Assembly (NCBI GenBank): GCA_021413805.1
Contig: JAIOPR010000096.1
Coordinates: forward strand, 1-56,604
Length of the DNA stretch: 56,604 bases
DNA from: Planctomycetota bacterium
GTDB taxonomy: Bacteria > Planctomycetota > MHYJ01 > WSZJ01
Direction of reading: 5' to 3'
Shown one piece after another: positions 2,756 to 50,748 of this stretch (its first letter is position 1; every line of letters begins with the position of its first letter). A program made the position numbers and the translations under genes. The notes under the pieces are model-generated. The model did not search any database. It worked only from the letters and a program-made list of their open reading frames with translations, and was not told the origin of the DNA.

Positions 2756-3288
2756 TGATGGCAGCGCTTGGAATCTCGCTTCGGGACCCGGCGGCGTGGG
2801 TCTTTCTCGCGTTTGCCGCGATGACGGTGGCGAGCGCGTTGCTCGTGGCGGTGTCGCGCAACATCATCTACAGCGCGTACTCGCTGTTGCTGACGTTTTT
2901 CGGCGTGGCGGGGCTGTACGCGTTCCTGGATGCGGACTTCCTGGCCGCGGCGCAGCTGCTGGTTTACGTCGGGGGCATCCTCGTGCTGATCCTGTTCGGC
3001 GTGATGCTCACGCACAAGATCCGGGACATCAACCTGTCGAACGAGACGACGAACCCGATTGTGGGCGCCGTCATTGCCGGGCTGCTGTTCCTCGTGCTGG
3101 CTTACGTTTCGATGCGGACGGACTGGCAGGTCGTGGACCGCGGGCCGGCGACGCCGACCACGCAGGAAATCGGCCGCGCGTTCGTCGGGAAGTACCTGCT
3201 GCCGTTCGAGGCCAGCTCCATCCTTCTCCTGGGCGCGCTGATCGGCGCCGCTTATCTCTCGCGTCACGAGAGAAAGAAGGAGGCGTGA
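2755..3288 (+). CDS. nuoJ: NADH-quinone oxidoreductase subunit J
   Basis: In-frame ATG at 2755 overlaps the nuoH TGA (TGATG); the upstream part of ORF 2632..3288 lies inside nuoH. AAAQLLVYVGGILVLILFGVML motif. Confidence 0.85.
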   Translation: MMAALGISLRDPAAWVFLAFAAMTVASALLVAVSRNIIYSAYSLLLTFFGVAGLYAFLDADFLAAAQLLVYVGGILVLILFGVMLTHKIRDINLSNETTNPIVGAVIAGLLFLVLAYVSMRTDWQVVDRGPATPTTQEIGRAFVGKYLLPFEASSILLLGALIGAAYLSRHERKKEA

Positions 3289-20959: not shown

Positions 20960-21634
20960 TCAAGCGGGCTTCCGCGTGGCGGTGAGGGAAATCTTGGCCC
21001 AGGTGTCGGGGTTCGAGGTTTTCTGGAGGGCGGCGATGACGCGGTCCATGGTGAGGGCGAAGAGCCGCGACTTGCCGAGCGAAGGGAGCCCGAACTTGTG
21101 GTGGAGGAGCGCGCGGTAGACGAGCGTCGGCTCGCGCACCGAGAGGATCACCGGATCGACCGGCAGCCCTTCGAACAACGCCGCCACGTTCTCCGGCGTC
21201 TGCTTCGCGATCTTCCGCTCGCACGGGTCGATCGCCGCAAACAACCGCAGAATTCCGTTCCTCCCGTTGTCGTCCAGCACGCACACCTTCCCCCCCGGCC
21301 GGCACACCCTCACCATCTCCGCCACCACCGGCCGCGCTTCGTCCACATGGTGCAGGATGTCCCGCGCGAAAACCCGGTCGAACGCCCCGTCCCGGAACGG
21401 CAGCCGGGCGGCGTCGGCCTGGGCGAAGCGCCCGTCGGTCCGCGTCGCGGCGCAGCGGAGCGACGCCCGGTCGATGTCGATCCCCACGGCGCCGCGCACC
21501 CCGCGCACCACGAGGTTGTTCCCCTGCCCGCACCCCACCTCCAGCACGCTCCCGCCATCCAGGTCGAGCGCTTCCAGGATCGACGCTTCGCGCGACCTCA
21601 TGTACGGGTTTTCGGTGAGCCAGTCGAAACGCAT
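20960..21634 (-). CDS. class I SAM-dependent methyltransferase
   Basis: VLEVGCGQGNN motif I. Start set at MRFDW (21634); the ORF-track start at 21703 adds a Pro-rich tail encoded by a C12 run and the 22-nt motif. Confidence 0.8.
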   Translation of the reverse strand: MRFDWLTENPYMRSREASILEALDLDGGSVLEVGCGQGNNLVVRGVRGAVGIDIDRASLRCAATRTDGRFAQADAARLPFRDGAFDRVFARDILHHVDEARPVVAEMVRVCRPGGKVCVLDDNGRNGILRLFAAIDPCERKIAKQTPENVAALFEGLPVDPVILSVREPTLVYRALLHHKFGLPSLGKSRLFALTMDRVIAALQKTSNPDTWAKISLTATRKPA

Positions 21635-21687
21635 GGGGGGGGGGGGCCAGTATAGCGGGGGAAGGGGGCTCGACGGCGGCGTGAGAC

Positions 21688-21709
21688 GGATAAACTGGGG
21701 CATGCGCAG
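21688..21709 (+). repeat. 22-nt motif GGATAAACTGGGGCATGCGCAG, copy 1
   Basis: Identical to the copy at 26197-26218; 18/22 identical to the copy at 27026-27047. Confidence 0.9.
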
Positions 21710-21718
21710 GAGGCGAGA

Positions 21719-21884
21719 TGGATCAGGGCATCAGGGAGGCTTAGAATGGTGGTCTGTGAGGCGTTCACACCGCGCGGGTCCTGCCCGCCGGCCCGGGTCG
21801 CCCCCCGGACGGGCGATCCGGGCCGGCCGCAGGCGCAAACCGGGGCTCCCGTGGCGCCGCGGGCGGTTTCGAATTTCCGATTGC
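21719..21884 (+). repeat. promoter-plus-leader repeat, copy D
   Basis: TGGATC-N17-TAGAAT, then blocks GTGAGGCGTTCACAC, CCCGCCGGCCCGG and GCGGGCGGTTTCGAATTTCCGATTG. Ends 43 nt before the ATG at 21928. Confidence 0.85.
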
Positions 21885-21927
21885 GTCTCCCGGATTTCCC
21901 GCGTCGCGGTTTAGACGAGGCGATGAC

Positions 21928-24332
21928 ATGAGGCGACTTCTCACGATCGCATTCGCCGTGGCCGCGGCCGTCGCCGTCCGTGCAGACGACCCGGACCTTG
22001 CCGCCCGCCTCAACCGCGAGTTCGCCCGCCTCGCCTCCGACGACGCCTCCGAGCGGGACGCGGGGGTCGAGGCGATTGCGAAGGAGGGGCGCGCAGCGGA
22101 GCCCGCTGTCAGGACTCGGATGCAGACGGAGAAGGATCCCGAAGTGAAGGGCCGACTCGCCCGTGTCCTGCAACGCATTGAGATTTTGGGCCTTGCGAGA
22201 CGGACGTGGACGCGCCTTTGGAGCTGTCGTCCTGTAGCCGCTGATCCCCTTGCTGCCGCGATCTCCCCCGACGGACGATGGGCCTCATCCCTTGGAGAGG
22301 ACGGCGGACTCGTGGTCTGGGACGCCGCGACCGGCAAGCCTCTCCGCGAGCTTCAGCTCGACGAGATCCCGAGAGTTTGTTTCCTCTGCTTCAACGCGGA
22401 CGGGAGCTTCCTTGCGGCTGCGCTGGGAGAGCCGGAGGAACACCGTACTTCCGGGTGCCACAAAGGGAGGAAGAAGCGGGCTTGCTCTGGGTCGTCGACG
22501 CCGGTGGTGCCGTCGTGCTTGGGCACGACCAGCATTTCGAGGCGATTTCACCGGACGGCCTCCGGATTGCCCTGGCCGACGTCACGCCGGACTCGAAGTT
22601 CAAGGACGTCGCGACGACGGTGTTGCTGGAAGCGTCGTCGGGGAAAGAGATTCGAAAGGTCGAATTCGGCCACGCGGCGGATCCCGACTTTCCCGTGTCG
22701 ATCGCGCCCGACGCATCCGCCGTCGCTTCGATTGAAGGCGGGCGGATCCGCTACCGTTCGCTTGAAACCGACCAGGCCGAGCTCGAGTTCGGCACGGGGG
22801 CGAAATGGCTCGCCTGGCACGGGAAGGCACTTGTCACGGCACATGCGGACGGCTCGGTTCGCTGGTGGTCGGGCGGCAAAGTCGTACGCGTGGTGGAAAA
22901 GGCCATCGAGAATCTTGAGCGCGTCGACGTCAAGTCCGGCTGCGTTCTTGCGAATGGGTCGGAGAGACCCGAGCCGCGCCGGTTTCGGGATCTCGCCTGC
23001 GTTCTGAACGCCGACAGCGGGGCCGTCCTCGACCGGTTCGAGATGAAGGGGAATCCCTTCGCGTGGGGCGGCCTCGTGTTCGATTTCTTCGGCGAGTGCG
23101 ACACGCGGGTCTTCTGCTCGGGAAAGCTTGCCCTCCGCCTTCCTGCGAGCGAGTCGGGCGACTCGTTGTGGTCTGGGCGCACCTGGTTCGGCGGAGATCG
23201 CGCCCTCGTCGTGGGGCATAAGCGGATGACGCTTCACGATCTCGCTCACGGCGACGCGACGACGGCGCTCCCGCAGCACGTTTCGCGCGTTCATGAGCTG
23301 GAGTGGTTCGAGGAGGGCCTCCACGTCGCGGGCTCCGATTCATCCGTTCTGATCGGCAACGACCAACTGCACTCCACCGCCATGCTGCATTACCAGGCCG
23401 CCATCACCTGCGGCCGCCATACGCTTGACCTTGGGCCGCTGGGTCTTGACGAAGTCGGCAAGGGCGCGATTTCCGCGGATGGCCGCTGGCTGGCGGTCCG
23501 TATGCGGAATCACGTGCTCTTCCGTCCGACGGACCCGGCAGGCGAAGCGCGCGTTCTCGGGGAAGACTGCCCAAAGGACTGGCAAGGTGCATTCCCCTCG
23601 CACCCCATTGCCATCGCCGCCGACGGCTCGCTTGTCGCCGCAGTTTCCGCGAATCTGCATTCCGTCGATGTCTGGGAGTCCTCGACGGGCCGCCGACTCG
23701 CCACCATCGCAAAGGAGGGAAGCTCGATCGAGGACCTCGAAGTCGTCCCGGGAAGTTGCAACATCGTCGTCATGGGCCCGTGCGATGACAAAACCGGACT
23801 GATCCGCGTTTTCAAACCAACCGGCGAACTCGTTTCTTCGAACAAGTGGCCGTTGTATTGGACCGGAAGCTCGCACTTTGTTCACGGTCGCTGGGAGATT
23901 GCCTCGAAGGACATTGACGATTTGCCCTCCGAGATCTGGATCCTCGATGTGACGCAAGCCGCACCTCCCGTGCGATTGGTACTTCCTTCCGGCGGCAACT
24001 TCACCATGCCCTGCGTTCATGAGAGCGGCGACGGCGACCACGTAATCGTTGAGAATCTCCAGGATCGGCGCGTCTACCTGCTCTCCTGCCGGGACAGCTC
24101 CGTCCTGCCGCTCGGCGACTGGGACCTCGGCGCGATCGGCGTCGCTGGCTTCCTGGACCGAGTTCACCCCGTCCGCATCGGCCCAGGCGGCCTGGCGCTG
24201 TATTACGGCCCGACCGTCGAGAAAGTCTCCTGCGACCCGGCCATCCGCGGTCAGGCGCTCGCGGTCTCGCCGGACGGGAAGCGCGTCGCAGTTGCCGACG
24301 GCGGCACCGTCACGGTCTACGAGCTCCGGTGA
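21928..24332 (+). pseudogene. secreted HEAT-like + WD40-like beta-propeller protein with broken reading frame (or sequencing error)
   Basis: Signal peptide MRRLLTIAFAVAAAVAVRA. Frame of ORF 21928.. is credible to about 22440 (..FNADGSFLAAALGEPEE). Credible coding continues in the frame of ORF 22278..24332 from about 22470 (LLWVVDAGGAVV..). Confidence 0.6.
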
Positions 24333-24643
24333 CCGGGTGGGCCGATCTCGCCGAGCGCCGGACGCCCGGACGAAGACCCCGTCCGCTGGTCAGATGCAGG
24401 GGGCGGGTCGAAGGGCTGCACTCCGGCCTCGGAGCAGGCGCGCCGAAGTTCGCAAGCCTCGCGCTCCAATTCTCCCGTGTCTCCTGTTTCGCCAAGAATC
24501 GTCGCACCCAGATGCCAGATCTCGCGCGCTTCATCGGGACGGCCCGCGCGAGGACACAGTTGCGCCTTGCCTCGAAGGGTCGGTTGCCGACTTTCCGGTC
24601 GATGAGAACCGCCTGCTCGATGCGCCGAAGCGCTTGTTCGCGC

Positions 24644-24770
24644 TGGATTTGCGGCCGCCACGAGGCGTAGAGTGGCCGTTCGTGGAGCCATTGCACCCCG
24701 AATATCCCGCCGACCTGGCGAAGACCCCGCGCCCGGCGGCGCGGAGGGCGGTTTCGAAGTTCCTATTGGT
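24644..24770 (+). repeat. promoter-plus-leader repeat, copy A
   Basis: TGGATT-N18-TAGAGT, then GTGGAGCCATTGCAC, CCCGCCGACCTGG and GGCGGCGCGGAGGGCGGTTTCGAAGTTCCTATTGG. Ends 45 nt before the ATG at 24816. Confidence 0.85.
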
Positions 24771-24815
24771 AATTGTCGGCGGACGGTCGTTCGAGCGGCG
24801 GTTTCTGAGGGACCG

Positions 24816-25202
24816 ATGATGGATTCCCAGTTGGTGCGAGCGGTCGCGCGTATGGCGCTCGATTTCCAATCACGCAGCGACGTCTCGATGAAGACGCTGC
24901 TTGAGGCATCCGGCTATCTGGCGGCGCCTGACGCGGCCTCCGTGGAGCGGTTGGAGATGGAGTTCAAGCGCCATCCGGACCTCGTCGAGTCTTGGCTGCG
25001 CAATTCGGACGACACTCGTTCCAGTCCGGCTTGGTACGTCCGATCGCTCGGCGACTCATGGGAAGTCGGTCGCTGCCCCGGAGGCCCACAAGAAGAGTTC
25101 CGCGATTTGACGGTCGCGTGCGCGACGTACGTTAAGCGCCACGTGGAGCAGATGCGCGGCTATTACGGGAAGGAGTGGTCGCCCCTCAAGCCTTCGACAT
25201 AG
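24816..25202 (+). CDS. hypothetical protein (128 aa)
   Basis: ATG ATG at 24816 inside ORF 24672..25202, downstream of repeat copy A. No recognisable domain. Confidence 0.5.
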   Translation: MMDSQLVRAVARMALDFQSRSDVSMKTLLEASGYLAAPDAASVERLEMEFKRHPDLVESWLRNSDDTRSSPAWYVRSLGDSWEVGRCPGGPQEEFRDLTVACATYVKRHVEQMRGYYGKEWSPLKPST

Positions 25203-25440
25203 CCCCCGCCGGCAACCCGGCCTTTCCGGTGACCCAGCACGCCGCGAAGTGTCCGGGCCGATGCTCCACGAGGGGCGGGTCCTCCGTCCAACACCGATCG
25301 ATCCGCGCCGGGCAGCGGTCCGCGAATCGGCAGCCCTCGAACTTCTTCGTCGTCGTCGGGATCTCGCCCTGGAGCGCGATCCGCTTGCGGCCGCGTTGCA
25401 CGGTCAGATCGGGAACGGGGATCGCCGAAGAGGACGCCAT
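25186..25440 (-). pseudogene. orphan 3' fragment of an oligopeptide/dipeptide ABC transporter ATPase (OppF/DppF C-terminal domain)
   Basis: SAIPVPD...LQGEIP...GCRFADRCPARIDRCWTEDPPLVEHRPGHFAACW matches the conserved C-terminal tail of OppD/F. No Walker or ABC-signature region lies upstream. Confidence 0.7.
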
Positions 25441-25583
25441 CTACAAAATCCTCAAGCATCTCGGACTTTCCGCCGCCCCCGAGGAATCACGCGCCCCTCC
25501 CGCCGCCGCGTCGTTGCCCGCTTCCGCTATCCTGGGCGAGCGAAGAGCGCGACCTGGCAAGGACCATGTATAATCCGGTCATC

Positions 25584-25856
25584 ATGTCCAAGGAACATCC
25601 TGTCGAGCGGGCGGCGCCGGGAATCTCCGCGGAAGGGCTCTTCGCGCAAGCCGTGCATCTCAAACCGCGCGATCGGGCCGCACTCGCGGGCAGGCTTCTG
25701 GCCAGTGTCAATCGGGACGCGGGGCGCGATCAAAAGGCAGCCTTCCACGCCACCGTCCTTCAACGCTTCGCCGAGCTTGAGTCTGGAACTGAAAAGGGTC
25801 ACACCGTCGAGCAGTCTCTCGCGGCCATGCGCCGCCGGCCTCGCCGGAAATCGTGA
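25584..25856 (+). CDS. putative addiction-module antitoxin component
   Basis: L.PRDRAALAGRLLASV ... RFAELESG pattern. Its stop overlaps the toxin start (GTGA). TATAAT at 25569-25574 precedes the ATG at 25584; an alternative ATG lies at 25566. Confidence 0.65.
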   Translation: MSKEHPVERAAPGISAEGLFAQAVHLKPRDRAALAGRLLASVNRDAGRDQKAAFHATVLQRFAELESGTEKGHTVEQSLAAMRRRPRRKS

Positions 25857-26149
25857 TTCGGATTCACAAGGCGGCCACCGTCGAAGCGACGGCGGCGTTC
25901 TGGTGGTATGAGAAACGCAGCGCAGCGACAGCGACGCGATTCTGGACCCGAGTAAAGGCGGCCTACCAGGAGATCCTGGCGGCGCCGTTGAAATGGGCCG
26001 CAGATGAAGAGGGCATTCGCTCATTTCGCATCAAGGGCTTTCCGTACGCGATCATCTACAAGGTCGTCGCGTCTGAAATCCTTGTCGCGTCCGTCGCTCA
26101 CGGAAAGCGGCGCCCCCGCTACTGGCGCACGCGCTGGCGCGACTTTTAG
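25853..26149 (+). CDS. parE: ParE/RelE-family toxin
   Basis: ..FPYAIIYKV...ILVASVAHGKRRPRYW typical of plasmid-stabilisation ParE toxins. Confidence 0.8.
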   Translation: MIRIHKAATVEATAAFWWYEKRSAATATRFWTRVKAAYQEILAAPLKWAADEEGIRSFRIKGFPYAIIYKVVASEILVASVAHGKRRPRYWRTRWRDF

Positions 26150-26196
26150 CACGCCATCAGCTGCGCACTCGCGGCGCCTGCCAAGCGTGGTGCGCC

Positions 26197-26218
26197 GGAT
26201 AAACTGGGGCATGCGCAG
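26197..26218 (+). repeat. 22-nt motif, copy 2 (contains the lipoprotein start codon)
   Basis: GGATAAACTGGGGCATGCGCAG; its ATG is at 26211. Confidence 0.9.
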
Positions 26219-27017
26219 AATCGCCCTTCTCTCGCTCGTGATCGTCGTCGGCTGCTATCCGCGGCTCGCCCCGTTTAACCACTCGAAGTGGATGGACGAC
26301 GCGGGAGCGCCGGCCGGGAGTTCGGAGTCCCGGCTTGCAGAATTCAGCGGCACCTATGGCTACGGCCTGGGTTTCGGCGGGTCAGAGCTTCGGGTGGAGC
26401 CGAACGGCCGCTGGCTTTATCGTTCGTACGGTTGCATGGGGCTGGACATCGAATGCTCAGGCACCGCGCGCGTCTCGGGGGAAGTCCTGGTGCTGGAGAA
26501 GCAGGATGCCTTCGGTTTCCCGACAGGAGAATTCGTCTCATGCCGGGCGGTTCCCTGGGAGGACCGGATTTACCTGTTGGACGACCTGGACATGGAGGAA
26601 TTCTGCGAACGGGTCAACGCGGGCTGGGAACCCGACGAGGAGGGGCGGAGCCCCTTCTTTCACATCGGCGAACTGGATTCGTTCCATCCTTCCGCTCCGC
26701 CTGACCTGCCTGCGGAGTGGCGCGGGCGGCTCCTGAAGAACCCGGTGAGCGGCACCATCCTTGAACGGTGTGAGGACGGTACGTTTCGCGCAGACGTCGG
26801 AAGTTCTGGTGGCGTCTACGTGGGGCTTGAGCTCCTGGTCGACCGGCGAGCGGATTGGCCGGGTCTGACTATGGTGGTCACGGCATGCTCGGAAGGGGAG
26901 TGCGTGCTGAAGCTGAGTCCAGGATTCGACAAGTGGGCACCGAAGCCTGGAAGTGCAGTTCGCAGCTACGCCTGGGGAGAGAGGAGCCGGCGTTGGAAAC
27001 CGGGCAATTCAAGGTGA
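26211..27017 (+). CDS. lipoprotein, paralog 1 (268 aa)
   Basis: MRRIALLSLVIVVGC lipobox. Homologous along its full length to the next gene. Confidence 0.7.
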   Translation: MRRIALLSLVIVVGCYPRLAPFNHSKWMDDAGAPAGSSESRLAEFSGTYGYGLGFGGSELRVEPNGRWLYRSYGCMGLDIECSGTARVSGEVLVLEKQDAFGFPTGEFVSCRAVPWEDRIYLLDDLDMEEFCERVNAGWEPDEEGRSPFFHIGELDSFHPSAPPDLPAEWRGRLLKNPVSGTILERCEDGTFRADVGSSGGVYVGLELLVDRRADWPGLTMVVTACSEGECVLKLSPGFDKWAPKPGSAVRSYAWGERSRRWKPGNSR

Positions 27018-27025
27018 CTCCAGCG

Positions 27026-27047
27026 CGATAGACTGGGGCATGCGTCG
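27026..27047 (+). repeat. 22-nt motif, copy 3 (contains the lipoprotein start codon)
   Basis: CGATAGACTGGGGCATGCGTCG; its ATG is at 27040. Confidence 0.85.
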
Positions 27048-27846
27048 CTTCAATCTCCTGCTCCTTGTGGCCTCCCTCGGCTGCAGCGTGCGTCCCGCCC
27101 CGGTTGAAGACGGACGCTGGAACGTCAGCGGCGTGGCGCCGAATGATCCTCCGGCGTTCTCGATGCGAAGCGTCGCCGGAAACTACGACACGCACTCCCC
27201 CGGCGGTGGCGCGGAACTGCGGATCGGGACGGACGGCCGGTGGACCTATCACGACTTCAGCTTCTTCGGCACCTCGAACGACATGAGCAGCGGGACGTTT
27301 CGGGTTTCCGGCGACAGCATCGTGCTCGAGGAGAATGACGCGATCGGCTTCCCGAGCGGTGAGTACGTGGTGCTGACCCTGGTTCGCTGGTGCGAACGCC
27401 GGTACCTCCTCGCCCCCGACGACTTCGCCAGGTTCTGCAACCACCTCAACTGGGGTTCTGAACCGGAGAGGTCGATGTGGGGCCGGTTTCTGCTGAAGGA
27501 CGAAGGCGCCGAACGTTTCAACATCGTCCACCCGGTGGAGGGCCCGCCCGGCTTGCCGGCGGAGTGGTTGAAGCACATCCTCCGGGAGCCGATCGCCGGG
27601 GTCGTGCGAGAAGTACTTCCCGAGGGTCGACTCCGCGTGGATCTTGGAAGCGCGGAAGGCATCTTCCCCGAGATGGACCTCCGGGCCGTGGATGAACGGG
27701 GCGTGAACCTGACCTTCCTCCGGGCGGTGAGTTGCACCGAACATGAATGTGTCCTGGAGCCGCGAGGAAAGCCGGAGGGACAGACGCCCCAGGTCGGCTG
27801 GAAGGTGACGTGCGACGCGAAGGGCGCCGAGTTCGCGCCGAAATAG
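27040..27846 (+). CDS. lipoprotein, paralog 2 (268 aa)
   Basis: MRRFNLLLLVASLGC lipobox. Shared blocks with paralog 1: GG.ELR...(N/D)GRW.Y, SGT.RVSG...VLE..DA.GFP.GE(F/Y)V, PPGLPAEW/PPDLPAEW, EGECVL/EHECVL. Confidence 0.7.
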   Translation: MRRFNLLLLVASLGCSVRPAPVEDGRWNVSGVAPNDPPAFSMRSVAGNYDTHSPGGGAELRIGTDGRWTYHDFSFFGTSNDMSSGTFRVSGDSIVLEENDAIGFPSGEYVVLTLVRWCERRYLLAPDDFARFCNHLNWGSEPERSMWGRFLLKDEGAERFNIVHPVEGPPGLPAEWLKHILREPIAGVVREVLPEGRLRVDLGSAEGIFPEMDLRAVDERGVNLTFLRAVSCTEHECVLEPRGKPEGQTPQVGWKVTCDAKGAEFAPK

Positions 27847-27971
27847 TCGAGCTCAATCCAGGGGACCCATCGGTCAATATTCGCAGGGGCCGCGCGTCGC
27901 GCGACAGGAGCGACTCGCCAACCCAGTCCGCTTCTCACGACCTCTTCTTCCCTCCTGAGCGAGCCCCGCCG

Positions 27972-28043
27972 TTCGACTCGCCCGGCGTGAGCGAGCGCCA
28001 GCGAGTCGAACGGCTGGCGTTCGCTCACGTCGGGCGAGTCGAA
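27972..28043. other. long interrupted hairpin (13 + 9 bp stem)
   Basis: TTCGACTCGCCCG (27972-27984) pairs with CGGGCGAGTCGAA (28031-28043). CGTGAGCGA (27986-27994) pairs with TCGCTCACG (28021-28029). The loop contains GAGTCGAAC, which could pair alternatively with the 5' arm. Confidence 0.7.
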
Positions 28044-28066
28044 GGATCCGCCGCCACGCTTCGCGC

Positions 28067-28192
28067 TGGAATTGCGACCGCCACGAGGCGTCGGGTGGCC
28101 GTCCGTGAAGCGTTTGCATCCGGAATGCCCCGCCGACCTGGGCGCAAACAGGGCGGACGGCGGCACGGAGGCGGGTTCGAAGTTCCCATGGG
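28067..28192 (+). repeat. promoter-plus-leader repeat, copy B (orphan, degenerate)
   Basis: TGGAAT-N18-TCGGGT at the promoter positions; the remainder aligns with copy A. No plus-strand gene follows. Confidence 0.8.
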
Positions 28193-28196
28193 TCCG

Positions 28197-30209
28197 CTAC
28201 CTGGGCGCAAACACCACGTTGTATTCGTCCGCCACCGACTCGGTCAGGTTGATCGTCAGCGTCCCGTCGTCCTTCCGCAGCAGGAGGTCGTTCTCCGCGA
28301 AATCGAGCATCCAGCCGTCGAGGATCCAGTCGGCGAACCACGTGGCCGTGATCTCGCGCGTCCTGCCGTCCTCGATCACGAGGCAGTGGTCGCCGCGGCT
28401 GTTCGAAGAGAAGGCGAGGAGGCGACCGTCGGGGCGGAAGCGGCAGTTGCCCTGCATGGAGACTGCGAAGCCCCCGGGGTCGGGGAGGGTTGTGGACGTG
28501 CCTTTGCCGACGTCGTAGATCTCGATCGTGTTGACCTTCTCCCCCTTGCCGATCCACGCGAAGGCGATCCGGGATCCGTCGGGCGACCACGCGGGCTTGT
28601 AGACCGACGTGTGGGCCTCGCCGGCGGGGGTCACCTCCCCGGTCGCCAGGTCCAGCACGTGGATCCGGCCCTTTCCCGGGAACGCGATCGCGCCGCCGTC
28701 GGGACTCCACGCGAACAGGTTGAGGAACACCGTCTCCACCTTGAGCGTCCGCACGCCGCCTTCCGCCATCCAGACGCAGAACGCGCCGCCCGTGCTCCAC
28801 GCGATGCGGCGGCCGTCCGGCGACCAGGCGAGCGAGCCCGTGGCGCCGTCGGCGATTTTCTCGGAAGCGCCGGTCTCGAGGTCGAGGAGGAAGAGCCGGC
28901 CGTCGTCGTGGCGCACGGCCACCCGTTTCCCGTCGGGGGCCGGCCGCGCGCTGCCGCCGCCGTCGGACAGCTTTTTCGGCGCGGCCGCCCCGGTGAGGTC
29001 GAAACGGTAGAGGCCCGTGGAGCCGTCCGGCGCCGTCCCGCACCCGATCGCCACTTTGCCGCCTGGGACCGGCATCGCGCTCCAGACGTCCCGGAGCTCG
29101 CCGCTCGCCTTGCGCACGTCGCTTCCGTCGAGATTCATCGACCAGAGCGCGCGCGTCCCGTCGCGGTCCGACCCGAACACGAGGCGCCCCTTGTCGCGCA
29201 GGAGGAGCCGCTCCCGGAATGCGGCGATCGCGGGAGCCTCGCCTTTCACCCCCGGGATCAGTGCCGCCGGGAGGTCGCGCAGCACCCGCCGCGCCACCCG
29301 CGCCCGGCGGCCGTCCGCCGAAGCGAGTGACGCCAGCCAGCCGGGAAGTTCCCCCGCCTCGAGCTTGCTCCCGTCCGGCGTCTTCTCGAAGCCGAGGTCC
29401 ATGAGGGCGAAGCGGTCGCCCTTCGCGCCCGCCCACCACTCGCGCCACCAGTTCAGCGACTCCTCCGGCAGTTCGATCCGCACTTTCGGCGGATCGTCGC
29501 TCATCCGCCAGACGACGCCGGCGCTGGCACAGATAAAGCGGAGTTCGTCGAGCGTGGAGTGGGACTTGTCGGAGGCGCGGGGCGGCAGGGCGCAGGCGGC
29601 GAGGCGCGAGGCCGCCTCGTCGGTCGCTTCGTAGTCTCCTTTGAGGAACATATCGAGCTGCTGGCGCGCGGGGAAGGGCTCGCTCGAGGCCATGGAGCAG
29701 CCGAGGCTTTCGACGCGCGCCGTCTTCCTCGGCGCCAGGAGCCACGACAGGAGTTCTCCAGCCGCGTCGCCGGCGGTGCCCGTCGGATCGGCCTCGAGCA
29801 GTTCCAGCGCGGAATCGACGAGCGTCGTGCCGCGGGCCGCTGCGGCCCACGCCTTGATCGCAGTGCGCCGCGCCGCCACGTCCTCCCCCGAGATCGCTGC
29901 CCAGCGCGACTGCAGTTCCGCGTTTTCAGGCCGCTTCACGATCTCCTTCACATGGAAGCGCCTGAGGATCGCCCCGGCGCGACCCCTGGCCTCCGGAGAC
30001 CCGGACGCGACGACGTCCCGAAGGACCGCCGCCGCGGATTCTCCGGCGGCCTCGAGCGCGGCCGACGCCGTGTCCCGCACCTGCGGATCGTCGTCGTCCA
30101 GCTGCCGGGCGAGGTCCTTGAGGCCGTCGCCGTCGCCTGCGAAGGCGGCGAGGGCCATCGCGGCAGCCAGGCTGAACGCAGCGGCAAGACGTCGGATTTG
30201 CGAGCTCAC
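28197..30209 (-). CDS. secreted HEAT-like + TolB/PD40-type beta-propeller protein
   Basis: GTG at 30209 gives the signal peptide VSSQIRRLAAAFSLAAAMALAAFA. PD40-like repeats (LVFGSDRDGTRALWSMNLDGS, WSPDGRRIAW, WSPDGSRIAF). The ORF-track N-terminus (to 30470) is a translation of repeat copy C. Confidence 0.8.
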   Translation of the reverse strand: MSSQIRRLAAAFSLAAAMALAAFAGDGDGLKDLARQLDDDDPQVRDTASAALEAAGESAAAVLRDVVASGSPEARGRAGAILRRFHVKEIVKRPENAELQSRWAAISGEDVAARRTAIKAWAAAARGTTLVDSALELLEADPTGTAGDAAGELLSWLLAPRKTARVESLGCSMASSEPFPARQQLDMFLKGDYEATDEAASRLAACALPPRASDKSHSTLDELRFICASAGVVWRMSDDPPKVRIELPEESLNWWREWWAGAKGDRFALMDLGFEKTPDGSKLEAGELPGWLASLASADGRRARVARRVLRDLPAALIPGVKGEAPAIAAFRERLLLRDKGRLVFGSDRDGTRALWSMNLDGSDVRKASGELRDVWSAMPVPGGKVAIGCGTAPDGSTGLYRFDLTGAAAPKKLSDGGGSARPAPDGKRVAVRHDDGRLFLLDLETGASEKIADGATGSLAWSPDGRRIAWSTGGAFCVWMAEGGVRTLKVETVFLNLFAWSPDGGAIAFPGKGRIHVLDLATGEVTPAGEAHTSVYKPAWSPDGSRIAFAWIGKGEKVNTIEIYDVGKGTSTTLPDPGGFAVSMQGNCRFRPDGRLLAFSSNSRGDHCLVIEDGRTREITATWFADWILDGWMLDFAENDLLLRKDDGTLTINLTESVADEYNVVFAPR

Positions 30210-30376
30210 ACCGATAGAAAATTCGAAACCGCCCTTCGCGCCGCCGGCCGCGGGAGATTCGTCCTGAATCTGCCCCCGGCGCCCCCCGGGGGGCGTCGGG
30301 GGCAGGTTGGCCGGGCCGGCGCGGTGCGAACGCTTCACAGCGGGCCACTCTAGACCTGCCGGCGAGTGCAAATCAA
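30210..30376 (-). repeat. promoter-plus-leader repeat, copy C
   Basis: On the minus strand: TTGATT (30376-30371), 18-nt spacer, TAGAGT (30352-30347), then GTGAAGCGTTCGCAC ... GGCGGCGCGAAGGGCGGTTTCGAATTTTCTATCGG, abutting the GTG at 30209. Carries a ~40 nt GC-rich insertion relative to copy A. Confidence 0.85.
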
Positions 30377-30430
30377 GCGCAGCGGCGCGCGGAATTCGCG
30401 GCGCGGCGCTGGCGGGCAAGACGTTCAGTG

Positions 30431-30460
30431 CGTTTCCGCGGACGTTTCCGTGCGTTTCCG
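30431..30460. repeat. three direct CGTTTCCG repeats
   Basis: CGTTTCCG at 30431, 30443 and 30453 (spacing 12 and 10 nt), 55-85 nt beyond the predicted -35 of copy C. Confidence 0.8.
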
Positions 30461-30502
30461 CGTCAGGCACTTTCTTGTCAACTCAACTTCGTCCCTATTG
30501 GT

Positions 30503-31807
30503 TCACGTGCGCGGCCGCGGCGCCTGCGAAGCCCGGATGATCGTCGTCACGCGCTCGACGGTCTTCGCCTGGTCCTTCCGGATCGTGAACACCCCGAGGA
30601 TGCACGCCGCGGCGCTGACGAGGAGGCCGACGGGCATCCAGAGGTAGGCGTGCAGGAGGCCGCCGGCCTTGATGACCTTGCCGAAGATCGGGGGCGAAAT
30701 CGTGTCGCCGAACGCGTGCATGCAGAAAATCACGGTGGCGTAGGCCATGGCGCGGGCGTTCGGGGCGCTGATGTTGGCGATCGTCGTGTTGAGCGTTGGC
30801 GTGCAGCTCATGAAAAACATCACGCCGAAGAAAAGCGACGGGAGGTAAACCCACGTCGAGTGCGCGAGGATCGCGGTCCAGAGGCAGGCGACGCCGCCGA
30901 GCAGGCCGATCGACGCCACGATCAGGTACCCGCCCGGGACCCCGCGCTTCGAAATCCGGTCCCCCGCCCAGCCGCCGAGAAGTGTCCCGATAATCCCGGG
31001 AAGGATCAGCGTCCCGCCGATCATGATGTTCGCGCGCTTCACCGACAGCCCTTTCACGCCCTCGAAAAACTTGGGCATCCAGTGAAGAAGCGGCACCGTC
31101 GCGAACGCGATGCCGGTGAGGGCGATGGTGACGAGGAGGAACGTGCGGTTGCGGAAGAGCGCGAGCTGCTCCCAGAGGTTGGCTTTGGCGGGAAGCGGCG
31201 CGTGCATATCGAGTTCGAGGTCCATCGCGCCGCGCGCCGGCTCGGCGACGATCCAGCAGAGGAGAGCGGCGGCGATGCCGGGGATCGCGACGGCCCCGAA
31301 CGTCCCGCGCCAGCCGAGTTCCCAGCCCGCGAGGCGCATCGTCGGGAGCAATCCCCCCAGCACGAAACCGGCGGCGCTTCCGATCGGCACCCCTGTGTAG
31401 AAAACGCTCAGCGCCTTGCCGCGCGATTCTTTCGAGAATAAGTCCGCGATCAGCGGCGGGCCGACGGTCAGGAATCCCGCTTCGCCGACCCCGATGAAAA
31501 CGCGGGCGAGGAGCAGAGTCTTGTAGCCAATGGCGAGGCCTGACGCGGCGGTCGCGAGGGACCAGACGAGGCAGCAGACGGCGATGATGCGCGGACGAGT
31601 CCAGCGGTCGGCCAGCGAGCCGATGATCGGCGAGCTGACCATGTAGCCGAGCGTGAAGACCGTGGCAAGCCAGCCTTCCTGGTCCGCCTTGAGGACGAGC
31701 TCGTGCGAGACCTTCGACAGGACCGCCGAGAGGATGTAGCGGTCCGCGTAGTTAAGGAAATTGATGAAGAACAGGATGGCGAGGGCGGCGGAGGCGCGGC
31801 GGATCAT
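30503..31807 (-). CDS. MFS transporter (Spinster-like)
   Basis: 12 TM helices. FLNYADRY and GSLADRWTRPRI (MFS motif A-like). Confidence 0.88.
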   Translation of the reverse strand: MIRRASAALAILFFINFLNYADRYILSAVLSKVSHELVLKADQEGWLATVFTLGYMVSSPIIGSLADRWTRPRIIAVCCLVWSLATAASGLAIGYKTLLLARVFIGVGEAGFLTVGPPLIADLFSKESRGKALSVFYTGVPIGSAAGFVLGGLLPTMRLAGWELGWRGTFGAVAIPGIAAALLCWIVAEPARGAMDLELDMHAPLPAKANLWEQLALFRNRTFLLVTIALTGIAFATVPLLHWMPKFFEGVKGLSVKRANIMIGGTLILPGIIGTLLGGWAGDRISKRGVPGGYLIVASIGLLGGVACLWTAILAHSTWVYLPSLFFGVMFFMSCTPTLNTTIANISAPNARAMAYATVIFCMHAFGDTISPPIFGKVIKAGGLLHAYLWMPVGLLVSAAACILGVFTIRKDQAKTVERVTTIIRASQAPRPRT

Positions 31808-35992: not shown

Positions 35993-37420
35993 ATGGAACT
36001 CAAACGGATCAGCGACTGCGTGTGGGAAATCCCGAAAACCGGCGCCATGCGCGTCCCGGGACGGATCTACGCCGACAAGCGCCTCCTCGACCTCGCCAAG
36101 GGCGACAAGGCCCTCGACCAGGTCGTCAACGTCGCGACACTTCCCGGGATCGTCAAATGGTCCCTCGCGATGCCCGACATCCACTGGGGCTACGGCTTCC
36201 CGATCGGGGGCGTGGCGGCATTCAGCCTCGATGAAGGGGTGATTTCGCCGGGTGGCGTCGGCTACGACATCAACTGCGGAGTCCGCGTCTGCAAAACCGG
36301 CCTGACCTTCAAGGAACTCGAAGGCAAGCACAAGAAGCTCGTCAACGCGCTCTTCAATGCCGTCCCGACCGGCGTCGGCGGCGACTCCGCGATCGGCCGT
36401 CTGTCGAAGGCGGACGGGACGGGGATCGTGACGACGGGGGCGAAGTGGGCCGTCGAGCACGGCTTCGGCAAGCCGTCGGACCTCGACTACACGGAGGACG
36501 GCGGGACGATGGCGGGGGCGGACCCGGCGGCGGCGAGCGACACGGCGTTCAAGCGCGGGCTGGGGCAGGTGGGGACGCTGGGAAGCGGAAACCATTTCCT
36601 CGAGCTGGACCGCGTGGACGAGACGTACACGCCGGAAGCGCTGAGCGTGTTCGGGCTTAGCGTGGGCGACGTGGTGCTCCTGATCCACTGCGGCTCGCGC
36701 GGCTTCGGGTACCAGATCTGCGACGAGAACGTCCACGACTTCGTGAAGATCGCGGGGCGGTACCACATCGACCTGGCCGACAGGCAGCTGGCGTGCGCGC
36801 CGGCGTCGAGCTGGGAGGGGAAGAAGTACCTCTCGGCGATGGCGTGCGCCGCGAACTACGCGTGGGTGAACCGCCAGGTCATCATGATCCTCGCCGGCCG
36901 CGCACTCTCCGACTGCCTCGGCAAGTCCGTCGAGCCCGAGCTGATCTACGACGTCTGCCACAACATCGCGAAGATCGAGGACCACGAGGTGGACGGCAAG
37001 ATGATGAAGGTCATCGTCCACCGGAAGGGCGCGACTCGCGCTTTCCCGGCCGGCCACCCGCTGACCCCGGCCAAGTACAAGGACGTCGGCCAGCCCGTCC
37101 TCGTCCCCGGCGACATGGGGCGCTGCTCCTTCCTCCTCACCGGCCTCCCCGGCGCGATGAAGGAAACTTTCGGCTCCACCTGTCACGGCGCCGGCCGCAC
37201 CGCCAGCCGCGGCGAAATGAACCGCCGCATGCAGGGCGTCGATCTCGACGCCGAACTCCGCTCGATGGGCGTCACCGTCCGCGGCAAGACCCGCGCCAGC
37301 CTCGCGGAGGAGATGCCGTCGGCTTACAAGGACGCAGACGTCGTGACGGAGGTCATGGAGCGCGCCGGGATCTCGAAGCGGATCGCGAAGTTCGTGCCGT
37401 TTGCGGTGATTAAAGGGTGA
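35993..37420 (+). CDS. rtcB: RNA-splicing ligase RtcB
   Basis: PDIHWGYGFPIGGV, GYDINCGVR, GSGNHF, HCGSRG and GSTCHGAGR motifs. Confidence 0.95.
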   Translation: MELKRISDCVWEIPKTGAMRVPGRIYADKRLLDLAKGDKALDQVVNVATLPGIVKWSLAMPDIHWGYGFPIGGVAAFSLDEGVISPGGVGYDINCGVRVCKTGLTFKELEGKHKKLVNALFNAVPTGVGGDSAIGRLSKADGTGIVTTGAKWAVEHGFGKPSDLDYTEDGGTMAGADPAAASDTAFKRGLGQVGTLGSGNHFLELDRVDETYTPEALSVFGLSVGDVVLLIHCGSRGFGYQICDENVHDFVKIAGRYHIDLADRQLACAPASSWEGKKYLSAMACAANYAWVNRQVIMILAGRALSDCLGKSVEPELIYDVCHNIAKIEDHEVDGKMMKVIVHRKGATRAFPAGHPLTPAKYKDVGQPVLVPGDMGRCSFLLTGLPGAMKETFGSTCHGAGRTASRGEMNRRMQGVDLDAELRSMGVTVRGKTRASLAEEMPSAYKDADVVTEVMERAGISKRIAKFVPFAVIKG

Positions 37421-37506
37421 TCTGGCGCGACTTCGGAAGCGCGGGGTCATTCAGAAATCAGGTGAGGATCCCGCTGGTCTCTCCCAAACCCGGTCAAAGC
37501 TCCTCG

Positions 37507-38240: not shown

Positions 38241-38451
38241 GGCGAAATGGGCCGCCGCATGCAAGGCGTGGACCTCGATGCAGAGTTCCGCGCCATGGGG
38301 GGTTCCCGTCCGCGAGAAGACCCGCGCGAGCCTCGCCGAGGAAAGACCGTCCGCTTACAAGGACGCCGGCGTTGTCATTGAGGTCATGGAGCGCGCGGGG
38401 ATCTCGAAGCGGATCGCGAAGTTCGTGCCGTTTGCGGTGATCAAGGGGTGA
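38241..38451 (+). pseudogene. duplicated, frameshifted 3' fragment of rtcB
   Basis: Aligns to 37211-37420. The last ~72 nt differ at 3 positions, the 5' part is more diverged, and there is one extra nt near 38298. Translations GEMGRRMQGVDLDAEFRAMG and KTRASLAEE.PSAYKDA.VV.EVMERAGISKRIAKFVPFAVIKG fall in two frames. Confidence 0.85.
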
Positions 38452-38530
38452 CCTTCCCGCTCCTCAGAAGTACTGTAGGTGACGACTTTCGCGGCTGGCT
38501 CTCTCTGTAGGCTCTTCTTCGGAGAAGTCG

Positions 38531-44978: not shown

Positions 44979-45157
44979 GGGAAAGCGAACGGCAAAGGGC
45001 AAGCGGAAAAGTGAAAACGCAAAACGGAAAGGAAAAGAGAAAAACGAAAAAGGACAACTGCGAGGCGGGGCCGCGGCCGTCCTCTTTTCCTTTTTCGTTT
45101 TTCCTTTTTCCTTTTTGTTTTCCCTTTTCCGTTTGCCCTTTGCCGTTTGTCGTTCCC
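44979..45157. repeat. long imperfect inverted repeat with purine-rich left arm and pyrimidine-rich right arm
   Basis: Left arm 44979-45055, GC-rich centre 45056-45078, right arm 45079-45157. The 31-nt segment AACGGCAAAGGGCAAGCGGAAAAGTGAAAAC pairs with 2 mismatches. The 16-nt segment GAAAAACGAAAAAGGA (45039-45054) pairs perfectly with 45088-45103. Confidence 0.9.
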
Positions 45158-45213
45158 TCCCCCCCCTTTCCGGGTTGCGCATTCCTCCCCCTTCCGGCTA
45201 ACTCTCCCTCCCC

Positions 45214-48914: not shown

Positions 48915-49092
48915 GGCCGGAAGCCTAGACCCACGCGGGGGATCGGGCAAGCCTGAACCGCCTGGCGGGCGGCTGGACGGCTCAAAAACGGGAGTTCCGG
49001 CCAGTTGCCCCCGGAGGGGTGATTTCGGCCTTGTCCAGCCCAAAAAACGCCACGGTCGGCCGTCCTGATCCTGGCCTTCAGGTTCCTATTGG

Positions 49093-50748
49093 ATGGTACG
49101 CCAGCCCGGTTATGATCACCCCCCCATTCCAACGGTACCGAGTCGCCGGCGACGGGGTGGAGAACCTGACAAGCGAGGGGGCAGTATCGTGAGCGCTCGT
49201 GTCGGATCATCGAGGGAGGCAGAGCCCCGTGCTGAATTGCACGGCGGTGGCTCCGTCGCCGACGCGTTGCGCCAGGTCTCGCGCGTCTTCGACCCGCACG
49301 GGGATCGCTCGCCGTTCGTTCCGGCCGTGCCCATGGACTGCCTCGGGGATGCCCAGTTTCGTGCGGACTTCGGGCTGAAATACGCCTACGTCGCCGGGGC
49401 GATGGCGAACGGGATTGCGTCGGTCGAACTGGTGGAAGCGGTCAGCCGCGCGGGGATGCTCGCGTTTTTCGGTTCGGCGGGGCTTGACCCGGCACGGGTG
49501 GAATCGGCCATCGACCGCCTGCAGCGGGACCTGGGGAAGCGGCCGTGGGGCGTGAACCTCATCCACAGCCCGAACGAGCCGGAGCTGGAAAACGCGATCG
49601 TGGACCTGCTGATCAGGCGCAACGTCCATCTCGTGGAAGCCTCGGCCTACATGGAACTTACGCTGCCGGTCGTGCGTTATCGCGTGCACGGCATCCGGCG
49701 TTCGCCCGACGGCACGATCGTGACCCCCAACCGCATCCTGGCGAAGGTCTCCCGGGTGGAGGTCGCTTCGAAGTTCTTTTCGCCGCCGCCGGAGAAGTTC
49801 CTGCGCACTCTCGTCGACACAGGCGTCATAACTGCTGAACAATTCGAAATTGCCGAACAGATCCCGATGGCGCAGGACCTGACGGCGGAAGCCGATTCGG
49901 CCGGGCATACTGACAACCGGCCCGCGCTGGCCCTCCTCCCGACGCTTTTTGCGCTTCGCGACCGGCAGCAGAAGCAACTCGGCTTCGCCCAGCGGCTGCG
50001 CGTCGGTGCCGGCGGCGGGATCGCGACGCCGGCGGCCGCGGTGGCGGCGTTCAGCATGGGCGCGGCGTACATCATGACCGGGTCGATCAACCAGGCCTGC
50101 GTGGAATCGGGGTCTTCGGACCTGGTGCGGAAGATGCTGGCCGAAGCTCAGCAGGCCGACTGCGCGATGGCGCCGGCGGCGGACATGTTCGAGATGGGGG
50201 TCCGCGTGCAGGTGCTCAAGCGCGGGACGATGTTCCCGATGCGCGCGGCGAAACTGTTCGAGCTCTACCGGCAGTACCCGAGCCTCGAAGCGATTCCCGA
50301 AAGCGAGCGGGCGGCGCTGGAAAAGAACACTTTTCGCGCGACGCTGAACGAAGTCTGGCTCCAGACGGAAAGCTACTTCCGGACGCGTGACGCGGCCCAG
50401 ATTCAGCGGGCCGAACGCGATCCCAAGCACAAGATGGCGCTGGTGTTCCGTTCGTACCTCGGGCAGTCGTCGCGCTGGGCCAACGCCGGCGAACCGTCGC
50501 GGCAGATGGACTACCAGGTCTGGTGCGGTCCCGCGATGGGCGCCTTCAACGAATGGACCAAAGGCAGCTTCCTCGAACGAGTCGAAAATCGCCGCGTCGC
50601 CGATGTCGCCTTGAACATCCTTTACGGGGCGGCGGTGCTGACACGGGCGCATATCCTGCGGCTGCAGAACGTGGAAATTCCGGCGGAATTGCTGGCGTGC
50701 GCCCCGCTGGCGGTGGCGGAAATTGAAAGGTTGAGCACACCAGTGTAA
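49093..50748 (+). CDS. pfaD: PfaD-family enoyl reductase (2-nitropropane dioxygenase-like) of a PUFA/polyketide synthase
   Basis: YAYVAGAMANGIASVELVEAVSRAGMLAFFGSAGL and downstream PfaD-type blocks. The start is uncertain (ATG 49093 or GTG 49189). Confidence 0.88.
   Translation: MVRQPGYDHPPIPTVPSRRRRGGEPDKRGGSIVSARVGSSREAEPRAELHGGGSVADALRQVSRVFDPHGDRSPFVPAVPMDCLGDAQFRADFGLKYAYVAGAMANGIASVELVEAVSRAGMLAFFGSAGLDPARVESAIDRLQRDLGKRPWGVNLIHSPNEPELENAIVDLLIRRNVHLVEASAYMELTLPVVRYRVHGIRRSPDGTIVTPNRILAKVSRVEVASKFFSPPPEKFLRTLVDTGVITAEQFEIAEQIPMAQDLTAEADSAGHTDNRPALALLPTLFALRDRQQKQLGFAQRLRVGAGGGIATPAAAVAAFSMGAAYIMTGSINQACVESGSSDLVRKMLAEAQQADCAMAPAADMFEMGVRVQVLKRGTMFPMRAAKLFELYRQYPSLEAIPESERAALEKNTFRATLNEVWLQTESYFRTRDAAQIQRAERDPKHKMALVFRSYLGQSSRWANAGEPSRQMDYQVWCGPAMGAFNEWTKGSFLERVENRRVADVALNILYGAAVLTRAHILRLQNVEIPAELLACAPLAVAEIERLSTPV

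Follow-up and report, generated by a model that had tools for sequence, protein, structure and literature searches.

Contig JAIOPR010000096.1 of a Planctomycetota bacterium (assembly GCA_021413805.1), which we analyzed whole (56,604 nt, 66.5% GC, locus tags K8T20_) and refer to as the window, carries four copies of a repeat with a promoter-like head, designated D, A, B and C in their order along the contig, and thereby raises the question of what kind of element would bring such a sequence next to unrelated genes. An earlier note on this DNA proposed a riboswitch-, attenuator- or operator-like leader co-regulating secreted beta-propeller proteins, and named a promoter-carrying miniature mobile element as the alternative. 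The analysis described here leads us to read the repeat, with a probability of roughly 0.5, as a non-coding, horizontally spreading promoter-plus-leader module of accessory-gene islands in a Planctomycetia clade, that is, as a putative mobile promoter.

The four copies align end to end (MAFFT alignment), and a profile search of all 56.6 kb recovered D at 21720-21898 (+), A at 24644-24783 (+), B at 28067-28207 (+) and C at 30376-30196 (-) and no further full copy, in agreement with the earlier note, which had placed four copies here and aligned them over their whole length. Pairwise identities among the four are 78-85% (85% for A versus C), the length of the repeat across copies ranges from 134 to 173 nt, and a 20-nt motif from its 3’ part, GGCGGKTTCGAAKTTYCNAT, occurs 4 times in the window where 0.03 occurrences are expected. 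The left boundary given in the note required adjustment, as the shared sequence begins 7 nt further left in A, B and a copy from another genome (L041a, described below), at TTCGCGCTGG (24637 and 28060 in the window). Similarly, the extra GC-rich segment of ~40 nt noticed in C is genuine, and is present in D too; it constitutes a 17-20 bp hairpin that was lost from A and B (Table 1).

Table 1. Features of the accessory island and of the repeat copies within it (positions in the window; copy C and its parts are read on the minus strand).
Feature	Coordinates	Strand	Parts or content	Basis
Inserted accessory island holding all copies	21660..30502 (~8.8 kb)	.	Order: lipoprotein-start remnant, D, WD40 pseudogene (probable), A, 128-aa ORF, Unstab_antitox/ParE pair (25566-26149), two paralogous lipoproteins (26211-27017, 27040-27846), hairpin, B, PD40 gene, C, E	synteny with relatives
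Copy D, long form	21719..21884	+	-35-like TGGATC 21719-21724; -10-like TAGAAT 21742-21747; top hairpin ~21787-21827; 3’ block GGCGGTTTCGAATTTCCGATTG	alignment, profile search, covariance model (95.7 bits)
Copy A, short form, without top hairpin	24637..24770	+	TGGATT 24644-24649; TAGAGT 24668-24673; 3’ end ..GTTCCTATTGGT	alignment, profile search, covariance model
Copy B, short form	28060..28193	+	-10 degraded to TCGGGT (28091-28096)	
PD40 beta-propeller gene K8T20_05890	28197..30209	-	between the inward-facing 3’ ends of B and C	
Copy C, long form	30210..30382	-	TTGATT 30376-30371; TAGAGT 30352-30347; top hairpin ~30305-30270	alignment, profile search, covariance model (135 bits)
E, probable degenerate solo 3’ terminal block	30483..30502	+	TCAACTTCGTCCCTATTGGT	tentative

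The repeat also occurs beyond this contig. Scanning 185,579 species-representative genomes for the pattern yielded 54 loci, roughly as many as chance would produce, and filtering these by profile and covariance-model searches left five real copies, all in metagenome-assembled genomes (MAGs) of Planctomycetia: L041a and L041b (CAVPNQ01), L032 (JADLHC01), and L010 and L025 (CAZPWT01). This brings the total to nine copies in four genomes, located beside unrelated genes. A covariance model (R1) run on the window and 16 selected loci (196 kb) revealed no further convincing copy, a pattern scan of metagenomes produced chance matches only, and viral contigs, plasmids and phages contained no copies. 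Copy A is 87-89% identical to L041a, which resides in another MAG, exceeding its identity to the copies on its own contig (78-85%) and indicating that the copies in the window are not recent local duplicates. The repeat family is real and apparently undescribed, and in the literature searched we found no description of an interspersed promoter-bearing repeat in Planctomycetia.

Protein coding does not account for this conservation. D, A and C share an open frame encoding ..GGFE(V/F)PIG.., which matches the frame of the downstream start codon, while other frames carry stops; a coding reading is ruled out by a 1-nt indel in L041a, by deletions of 40 nt in B versus 41 nt in A and by differing stops, and L010 and L032 join their genes in different frames. 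Since indels break the frame, the repeat is non-coding and has no conserved open reading frame (ORF); the earlier note had already observed that the substitutions are not three-periodic. A six-frame pseudo-protein search for mis-called ORFs that might reveal extra copies yielded nothing. Rfam models gave no matches in the whole window at the gathering score, none in 21500-30700 at E values up to 5 except for generic hairpins at 27971-28045, and none to the IS605/IscB guide-RNA families, and no tRNA or tmRNA genes were found. The generic hairpin (miRNA) models, the only ones to match there, recognize a 31-bp stem (94% complementary, 10-nt loop) at 27972-28043, between a lipoprotein gene and copy B, which was not seen elsewhere.

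The copies of the window and of the other genomes follow a single plan, which reads, from 5’ to 3’, TTCGCGCTGGATT (-35-like), an 18-nt spacer, TAGAGT, GTGAAGCGTTCGCAC, CCCGCCGACCTG, an optional hairpin, GGCGAAAACC.., and CGGCGGCGCGGAGGGCGGTTTCGAAGTTCCTATTGG(T). The consensus fold of seven copies consists of three nested main helices: a closing helix in which GAAGCGUUC pairs with GGCGGUUUC, a second helix pairing CCGCC with GGCGG, and, at the top, an optional perfect GC hairpin of 17-20 bp. The first two helices are conserved, and the third is present in five copies and missing from two (A and B). Standard pairs occupy 90% of the cells across the seven copies, compared to 35-52% when the partners are slid by 1-3 columns, and compensatory changes occur in 5/16 pairs of the top hairpin (e.g., GGATCG/CGATCC, CTGACG/CGTCAG and CCGACG/CGCCGG), such that the pairing between 5’ and 3’ GC-rich segments is better supported than the earlier note, which had allowed for chance, claimed. 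In one copy, L010, a perfect palindrome of ~150 nt (2955-3111) is centered on the top hairpin and reaches the contig end; we rejected it as biology, the most likely source being a de Bruijn fold-back during assembly.

The closing helix pairs in 58/62 cells when the sense strand is folded and in 35/62 cells for the antisense strand, with 37% G.U pairs, which modestly favors the view that the element acts as a sense-strand RNA. A promoter-like head followed by a stable structure that pairs specifically on the sense strand could also describe a gene family for small RNAs that act in trans, in which every gene has a promoter of its own and the 3’ block is the functional or seed region, and three of the copies (B, L041b and L025) could indeed stand alone. 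We consider such genes highly improbable, as no copy has a terminator after its conserved 3’ end, this end runs into a start codon in C, L025 is 5’-truncated and devoid of a promoter, and Rfam provides no match.

The head of the element has a sigma70-like consensus, TKGATT-N17/18-TAGAGT. The hexamers and spacers that had been read in D (TGGATC-N17-TAGAAT), A (TGGATT-N18-TAGAGT) and C (TTGATT-N18-TAGAGT) were confirmed, as was the nuoA promoter TTGACG-N17-TAGAAT, which lies at 996-1024; the claim that such a pair opens each copy is correct for D, A and C and fails for B, whose -10 box has degraded to TCGGGT. Native promoters of this lineage have similar TAnnnT -10 boxes (TACAAT, TATACT and TGTATAAT), and the state of the box in the element follows the presence of a gene: it is intact (TAGAGT or TAGAAT) in all four copies that have a known head and a co-oriented gene behind them (D, A, C and L041a), and it is degraded (B) or missing (L025) in two copies that no gene follows. 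Judging from these sequence features, the head may be regarded as a putative promoter.

A following coding region lies ahead of 6/9 copies. The 3’ end of D is separated by 43 nt from the downstream ATG (21928) of a secreted WD40 gene that carries a frameshift, that of A is 45 nt before ATG 24816 of a 128-aa orphan gene (K8T20_05860), and that of C directly adjoins (0 nt) GTG 30209 of the secreted PD40 beta-propeller gene, where the NCBI annotation likewise starts the 670-aa protein; all three distances are those of the earlier note. In the other genomes, L041a is followed by a co-oriented gene for a 338-aa secreted protein and L010 by a co-oriented HTH_66-DUF433/PIN_10 toxin-antitoxin pair, and the tip of L032 adjoins an open frame with a third-position GC of 0.94 and no start codon, suggesting a truncated gene, for which a PDB search supplied no name. 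Three copies are placed differently: the convergent PD40 gene has its stop codon (28197-28199) 3 nt from the 3’ end of B, a convergent AbiEii gene has its stop 7 nt from L041b, and the 5’-truncated L025 follows immediately on the stop of an M3 peptidase gene and points at a convergent gene. The statement that the element heads unrelated genes is therefore accurate for D, A and C, while B heads none, and the kinship that had been assumed between the D and C genes is marginal, with 27% identity over 59 aa of their proteins (pairwise E value of 8e-4) and no tblastn match. The WD40 gene (21928-24332) shifts frame at ~22440-22460, neither of its two ORFs is in the protein collection, and it is probably a pseudogene or an assembly error.

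These contexts bear on the possibility of a dedicated cis-regulatory leader RNA (a riboswitch, an attenuator, or a leader bound by a small RNA or a protein) or of a TTCGAA operator, responding to one common signal. A structure specific to the sense strand and carrying compensatory changes, a majority of copies that point at a following coding region, and a 3’ block strongly conserved across genomes are all features expected of such a leader. However, orthologues of the C gene are found without the element, three copies (B, L041b and L025) point at the 3’ end of a convergent gene, and A and B have lost the largest structural domain while being otherwise unchanged, so that the element is not a leader tied to particular genes. 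Moreover, the downstream functions are unrelated, comprising beta-propellers, toxin-antitoxin modules, a lipoprotein-like secreted protein and the 128-aa protein, no U-tract follows the hairpin, and Rfam offers no match at E values up to 5, making a leader of this kind improbable. The same observations speak against the co-regulation of secreted beta-propeller proteins put forward in the earlier note, namely the orthologues lacking the element, the copies that no gene follows, the dispensable top hairpin, the toxin-antitoxin and unrelated genes that copies in other genomes precede, and the lack of an Rfam counterpart.

All of the copies in the window reside within a single island (Table 1). 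In the nearest relatives (L072-L075), the MFS and methyltransferase genes that flank it are only 24 nt apart, with synteny kept on both sides; another relative (L070) has three ABC-transporter genes between the two, and a further one (L077) has a lipoprotein gene followed by an antitoxin and ParE and then MFS, with no element. As this site is empty or differently filled in relatives, the segment ~21660-30502 represents an inserted, lineage-variable island, and ~100 kb of the relatives’ DNA contained no copy of the repeat. Most island genes have a third-position GC of 0.72-0.78, compared to 0.84-0.92 in the flanking core genes; the PD40 gene is an exception (0.88), which fits an origin within the same lineage.

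Orthologues of the PD40 gene, which are 81% (L062, MAG SJ466) and 87% (L066-L069) identical, lie at another locus, none of them carries the element, and they share a native upstream sequence, ..TCGTCCGGTCGGGGGG..GTCAC..GGGAG.., in which GGGAG is the ribosome-binding site. Homology between the orthologous locus and the window is limited to the ORF, from its GTG start to its stop codon, and no other gene of those loci occurs in the window, indicating that nothing more than this ORF lies between the tips of B and C. By this comparison, the PD40 gene is apparently cut from its native locus exactly at the ORF ends. The C-terminal codons differ in the orthologues (FVGR* versus FAPR*), and a 15-nt direct repeat, ACCTGGGCGCAAACA, is found at 28136-28150 inside copy B and again at 28199-28213 as the altered last codons of PD40, which looks like a template-switch or conversion patch at the junction.

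At the opposite end of the island, the 5’ end of copy D adjoins the truncated start of a lipoprotein gene. A perfect 22-nt direct repeat, GGATAAACTGGGGCATGCGCAG, occurs at 21688-21709 and 26197-26218, with a weaker third copy at 27026-27047, and brackets a 4.5 kb block extending from D to ParE. This repeat corresponds to the -10-like box and start codon of both lipoprotein genes, which are tandem paralogues (ATG 26211 and 27040) and seemingly leaderless; at 21688, it belongs to a gene start that copy D cuts off 8 nt past the ATG. At the extreme edge of the island, adjoining the MFS stop codon (30503-30505), lies E (Table 1), which differs from GTTCCTATTGG at one position and is similar to the L041b variant TCGTTTCCAACTTCCTATTG; its assignment is tentative because chance alone would yield about one such match in the window. 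Three GGAAACG repeats (minus strand) and a perfect TTGACA are located beside E at 30430-30470, between the MFS stop and copy C. A 293-bp unit with inverted tips, composed of C and E, was considered and rejected, as no inverted tip is found upstream of the other copies.

The conserved 3’ tip, ..TTCGAAGTTCCTATTGG(T) or ..GGCGGTTTCGAAGTTCCTATTGG(T), forms a sharp junction with the adjoining DNA. Across copies, the flanks to the right of ..CTATTGG(T) are mutually unrelated, and so are the flanks to the left of TTCGCGCTGG; homology extending past the element ends was accordingly rejected, and a likeness of D and A just before the ATG is not significant. The tip thus behaves as a marker of junctions with foreign or rearranged DNA, and the element as a portable unit confined to accessory islands. 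Within the 3’ block of A, L041a, L010, L025 and L032 (e.g., 24756-24767 in the window) we observed GAAGTTCCTATT, which we take to match 12/13 nt of the Flp-binding arm of the yeast FRT site, presumably by coincidence, although the match would gain interest if a tyrosine recombinase were involved.

Combining these results, we arrive at the model of a mobile promoter-plus-leader module. The repeat recurs, is spread across genomes, is absent from orthologous sites, keeps to islands and has a fold with compensatory changes. On the basis of its sequence, it would also be active as a promoter, function at the RNA level and be able to move. According to this model, the module would be joined to the 5’ side of accessory genes, or would land beside ORF ends, through recombination or transposition at its 3’ tip by machinery encoded elsewhere. 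Once in place, it would supply transcription and a stable, structured 5’ leader to genes that arrive promoter-less, and its head would decay where no gene follows. A role as promoter and leader appears most likely because of the polarity of the element, its TAnnnT -10 box, its sense-only pairing, and the decay of the head in copies with no following gene.

A number of findings weigh against this model. The head hexamers match only 7-8/12 positions of the E. coli consensus, and a promoter scan at a threshold of 9 of 12 reports no promoter. Because the sense strand was used to predict the closing helix, the comparison of the two strands is biased, and only nine copies are available, several of them cut by contig or locus ends, so that both the covariation statistics and the link between an intact -10 box and a following gene rest on small numbers. 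The copies are clustered, with two within 2.2 kb at L041 and four within 8.7 kb in the window, and this clustering could reflect homologous exchange of whole cassettes that share an upstream region. With regard to movement, the 5’ 35 nt compared to the reverse complement of the 3’ 35 nt in five copies revealed no terminal inverted repeats beyond those of shuffled sequences (p of 0.14-0.99), the longest junction repeat is 0-3 nt even with offsets allowed, giving no target-site duplications, and a Pfam scan of the ORFs of the 56.6 kb window found no transposase, recombinase or integrase. Since it has neither terminal inverted repeats nor target-site duplications, the element is not a classical miniature inverted-repeat transposable element (MITE), although it is small, non-coding and variably present at orthologous sites as MITEs are; the mobile alternative named in the earlier note fits the evidence better than its working hypothesis, only not in the classical form.

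Terminal inverted repeats and target-site duplications are also lacking in HUH and DEDD-type insertion sequence (IS) families, which raises the possibility that the repeat is the decayed end or a miniature derivative of an IS or transposon with an outward promoter, moved in trans by the transposase of full-length copies located elsewhere in the genome, with IS200/IS605-, IS110- and IS91-like elements as candidates. A sharp 3’ terminus combined with internal hairpins, orthologous sites that lack the element, the truncated gene adjoining L032 and the probable solo tip E at the island edge would all be explained in this way. Nevertheless, no transposase was found near any of the nine copies, neither the plasmid, phage and viral collections nor the IS605/IscB guide-RNA families of Rfam provided a match, and the metagenome pattern scan was devoid of real copies, arguing against an active, abundant transposon. 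The copies are, moreover, clustered rather than dispersed, and on balance we regard an IS origin as unlikely.

The clustering itself, with 4-5 copies in the 8.8 kb of the island and 2 in 2.2 kb at L041, resembles an array, and the folded element could accordingly be an integron-like recombination site, serving as the substrate of a recombinase encoded elsewhere that crosses over at ..CTATTGG|T, with cassette arrays between the copies. The cargo is typically accessory and includes toxin-antitoxin genes (ParE, AbiE, PIN), the junctions are tight around ORFs (0 nt from the C start, 3 nt from the C stop, 0 nt from the MFS stop and 7 nt from the AbiEii stop), the paired conserved flanks around an optional top hairpin resemble attC sites with their variable terminal structure, and the MFS-methyltransferase site holds different cargo in three lineages. 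Nonetheless, inspection of the alignments revealed no RYYYAAC/GTTRRRY core sites at either end on either strand, and the window encodes no integrase or recombinase. Furthermore, C has the opposite orientation to D, A and B, five or six genes lie between A and B, far more than a typical cassette contains, the promoter-like 5’ part is equally conserved and would not be needed by a pure recombination site, and the closing helix depends on G.U pairs, favoring RNA over single-stranded DNA. A site of the integron type is therefore rather improbable.

A departure from the integron scheme, which we also hold to be a long shot, is that the repeat is the joining site of an undescribed cassette-capture system of Planctomycetia. 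Here, a folded site of 110-130 nt would be cut or exchanged at ..CTATTGG|T by a recombinase encoded elsewhere, stitching promoter-less ORFs into an array at a fixed hot spot between the MFS and methyltransferase genes, with the PD40 gene, trimmed exactly to its start and stop codons, as an example. In contrast to integron attC, each site would carry its own promoter and leader, such that every captured cassette would be self-expressed.

Among known systems, the mobile promoter-plus-leader module matches the operational definition of putative mobile promoters (PMPs; Matus-Garcia, Nijveen and van Passel 2012), which a commentary (PMC3575422) gives as sequences that lie ahead of non-homologous genes and are 80% or more identical over a length of 50 nt or more. 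The repeat shows these values, with 85% identity for A versus C and 87-89% for A versus L041a, and its downstream genes are unrelated or barely related. As with PMPs, similar non-coding sequence occurs within and between genomes with no Rfam match and no known way of moving; unlike PMPs, a catch-all class defined by similarity, it has a folded body with compensatory changes, a sharp 3’ tip, gene-less copies and a confinement to islands. The Correia repeat-enclosed elements (CREE) of Neisseria (PMC2649163; Siddique et al. 2011, cited through PMC3575422) are likewise small (100-160 nt), non-coding and interspersed, and are able to provide neighboring genes with promoters. The repeat shares with CREE this potential promoter supply, a hairpin-forming mRNA leader, long and short forms, and a variable presence at orthologous sites, while CREE are bounded by 26-bp terminal inverted repeats, duplicate a TA target and are dispersed in hundreds of copies; the repeat has neither the inverted repeats nor the duplication, and its copies are few and clustered.

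The resemblance to integron attC sites and CALIN arrays lies in an imperfect folded palindrome with conserved paired flanks and a center of variable length, arrayed among tightly packed accessory cassettes that include toxin-antitoxin genes and have sharp junctions. The differences from attC are the lack of R’’/R’ cores and of a nearby integrase, the mixed orientation, the promoter-like head of its own, the facing of gene 5’ sides and the G.U-dependent pairing. REP-type repeats consist of short palindromic units, number tens to hundreds of copies and are associated with a RAYT transposase. Like REP/REPIN and ERIC-type repeats, the element is extragenic, non-coding and hairpin-forming with co-varying arms; unlike REP, it is a polar unit of 135-175 nt whose 5’ and 3’ halves differ. 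Its 4 full copies in the 56.6 kb all lie in one island.

The genetics of Planctomycetia has received little study. An active promoter in the head would mean that the element shows how acquired or relocated genes, such as the beta-propeller gene, gain expression signals, and would make it a compact, native part combining promoter and leader for use in genetic tools in the phylum. If the tip is a recombination crossover point, a new cassette-assembly system would be defined. Should neither be true, the element would still serve as a clear marker of accessory islands in this clade.

Outside the island, an exact copy of the 11-mer GTTCCTATTGG is found at 49082-49092 (~0.03 expected by chance), where it adjoins ATG 49093 of an ORF located upstream of a giant PKS-like ORF. 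With a weak covariance-model match at 48963-49093 (E value of 0.37), it could be a very decayed copy or a chance occurrence. Directly before the ATG of the methyltransferase gene, at 21635-21646, lies a run of 12 C (minus strand), where relatives have 6 C, and this could be a slipped-strand tract at a near-leaderless start. A purine/pyrimidine-rich imperfect palindrome of ~185 nt, with 79-nt arms that are 78% complementary and contain GAAAAG-type units, occupies an intergenic region at 44979-45163. Finally, a 157-nt direct repeat with 87% identity and a spacing of 1031 nt (37267-37423 and 38298-38454) occurs at and after the 3’ end of the RtcB gene, which in the L070 relative carries an intein.

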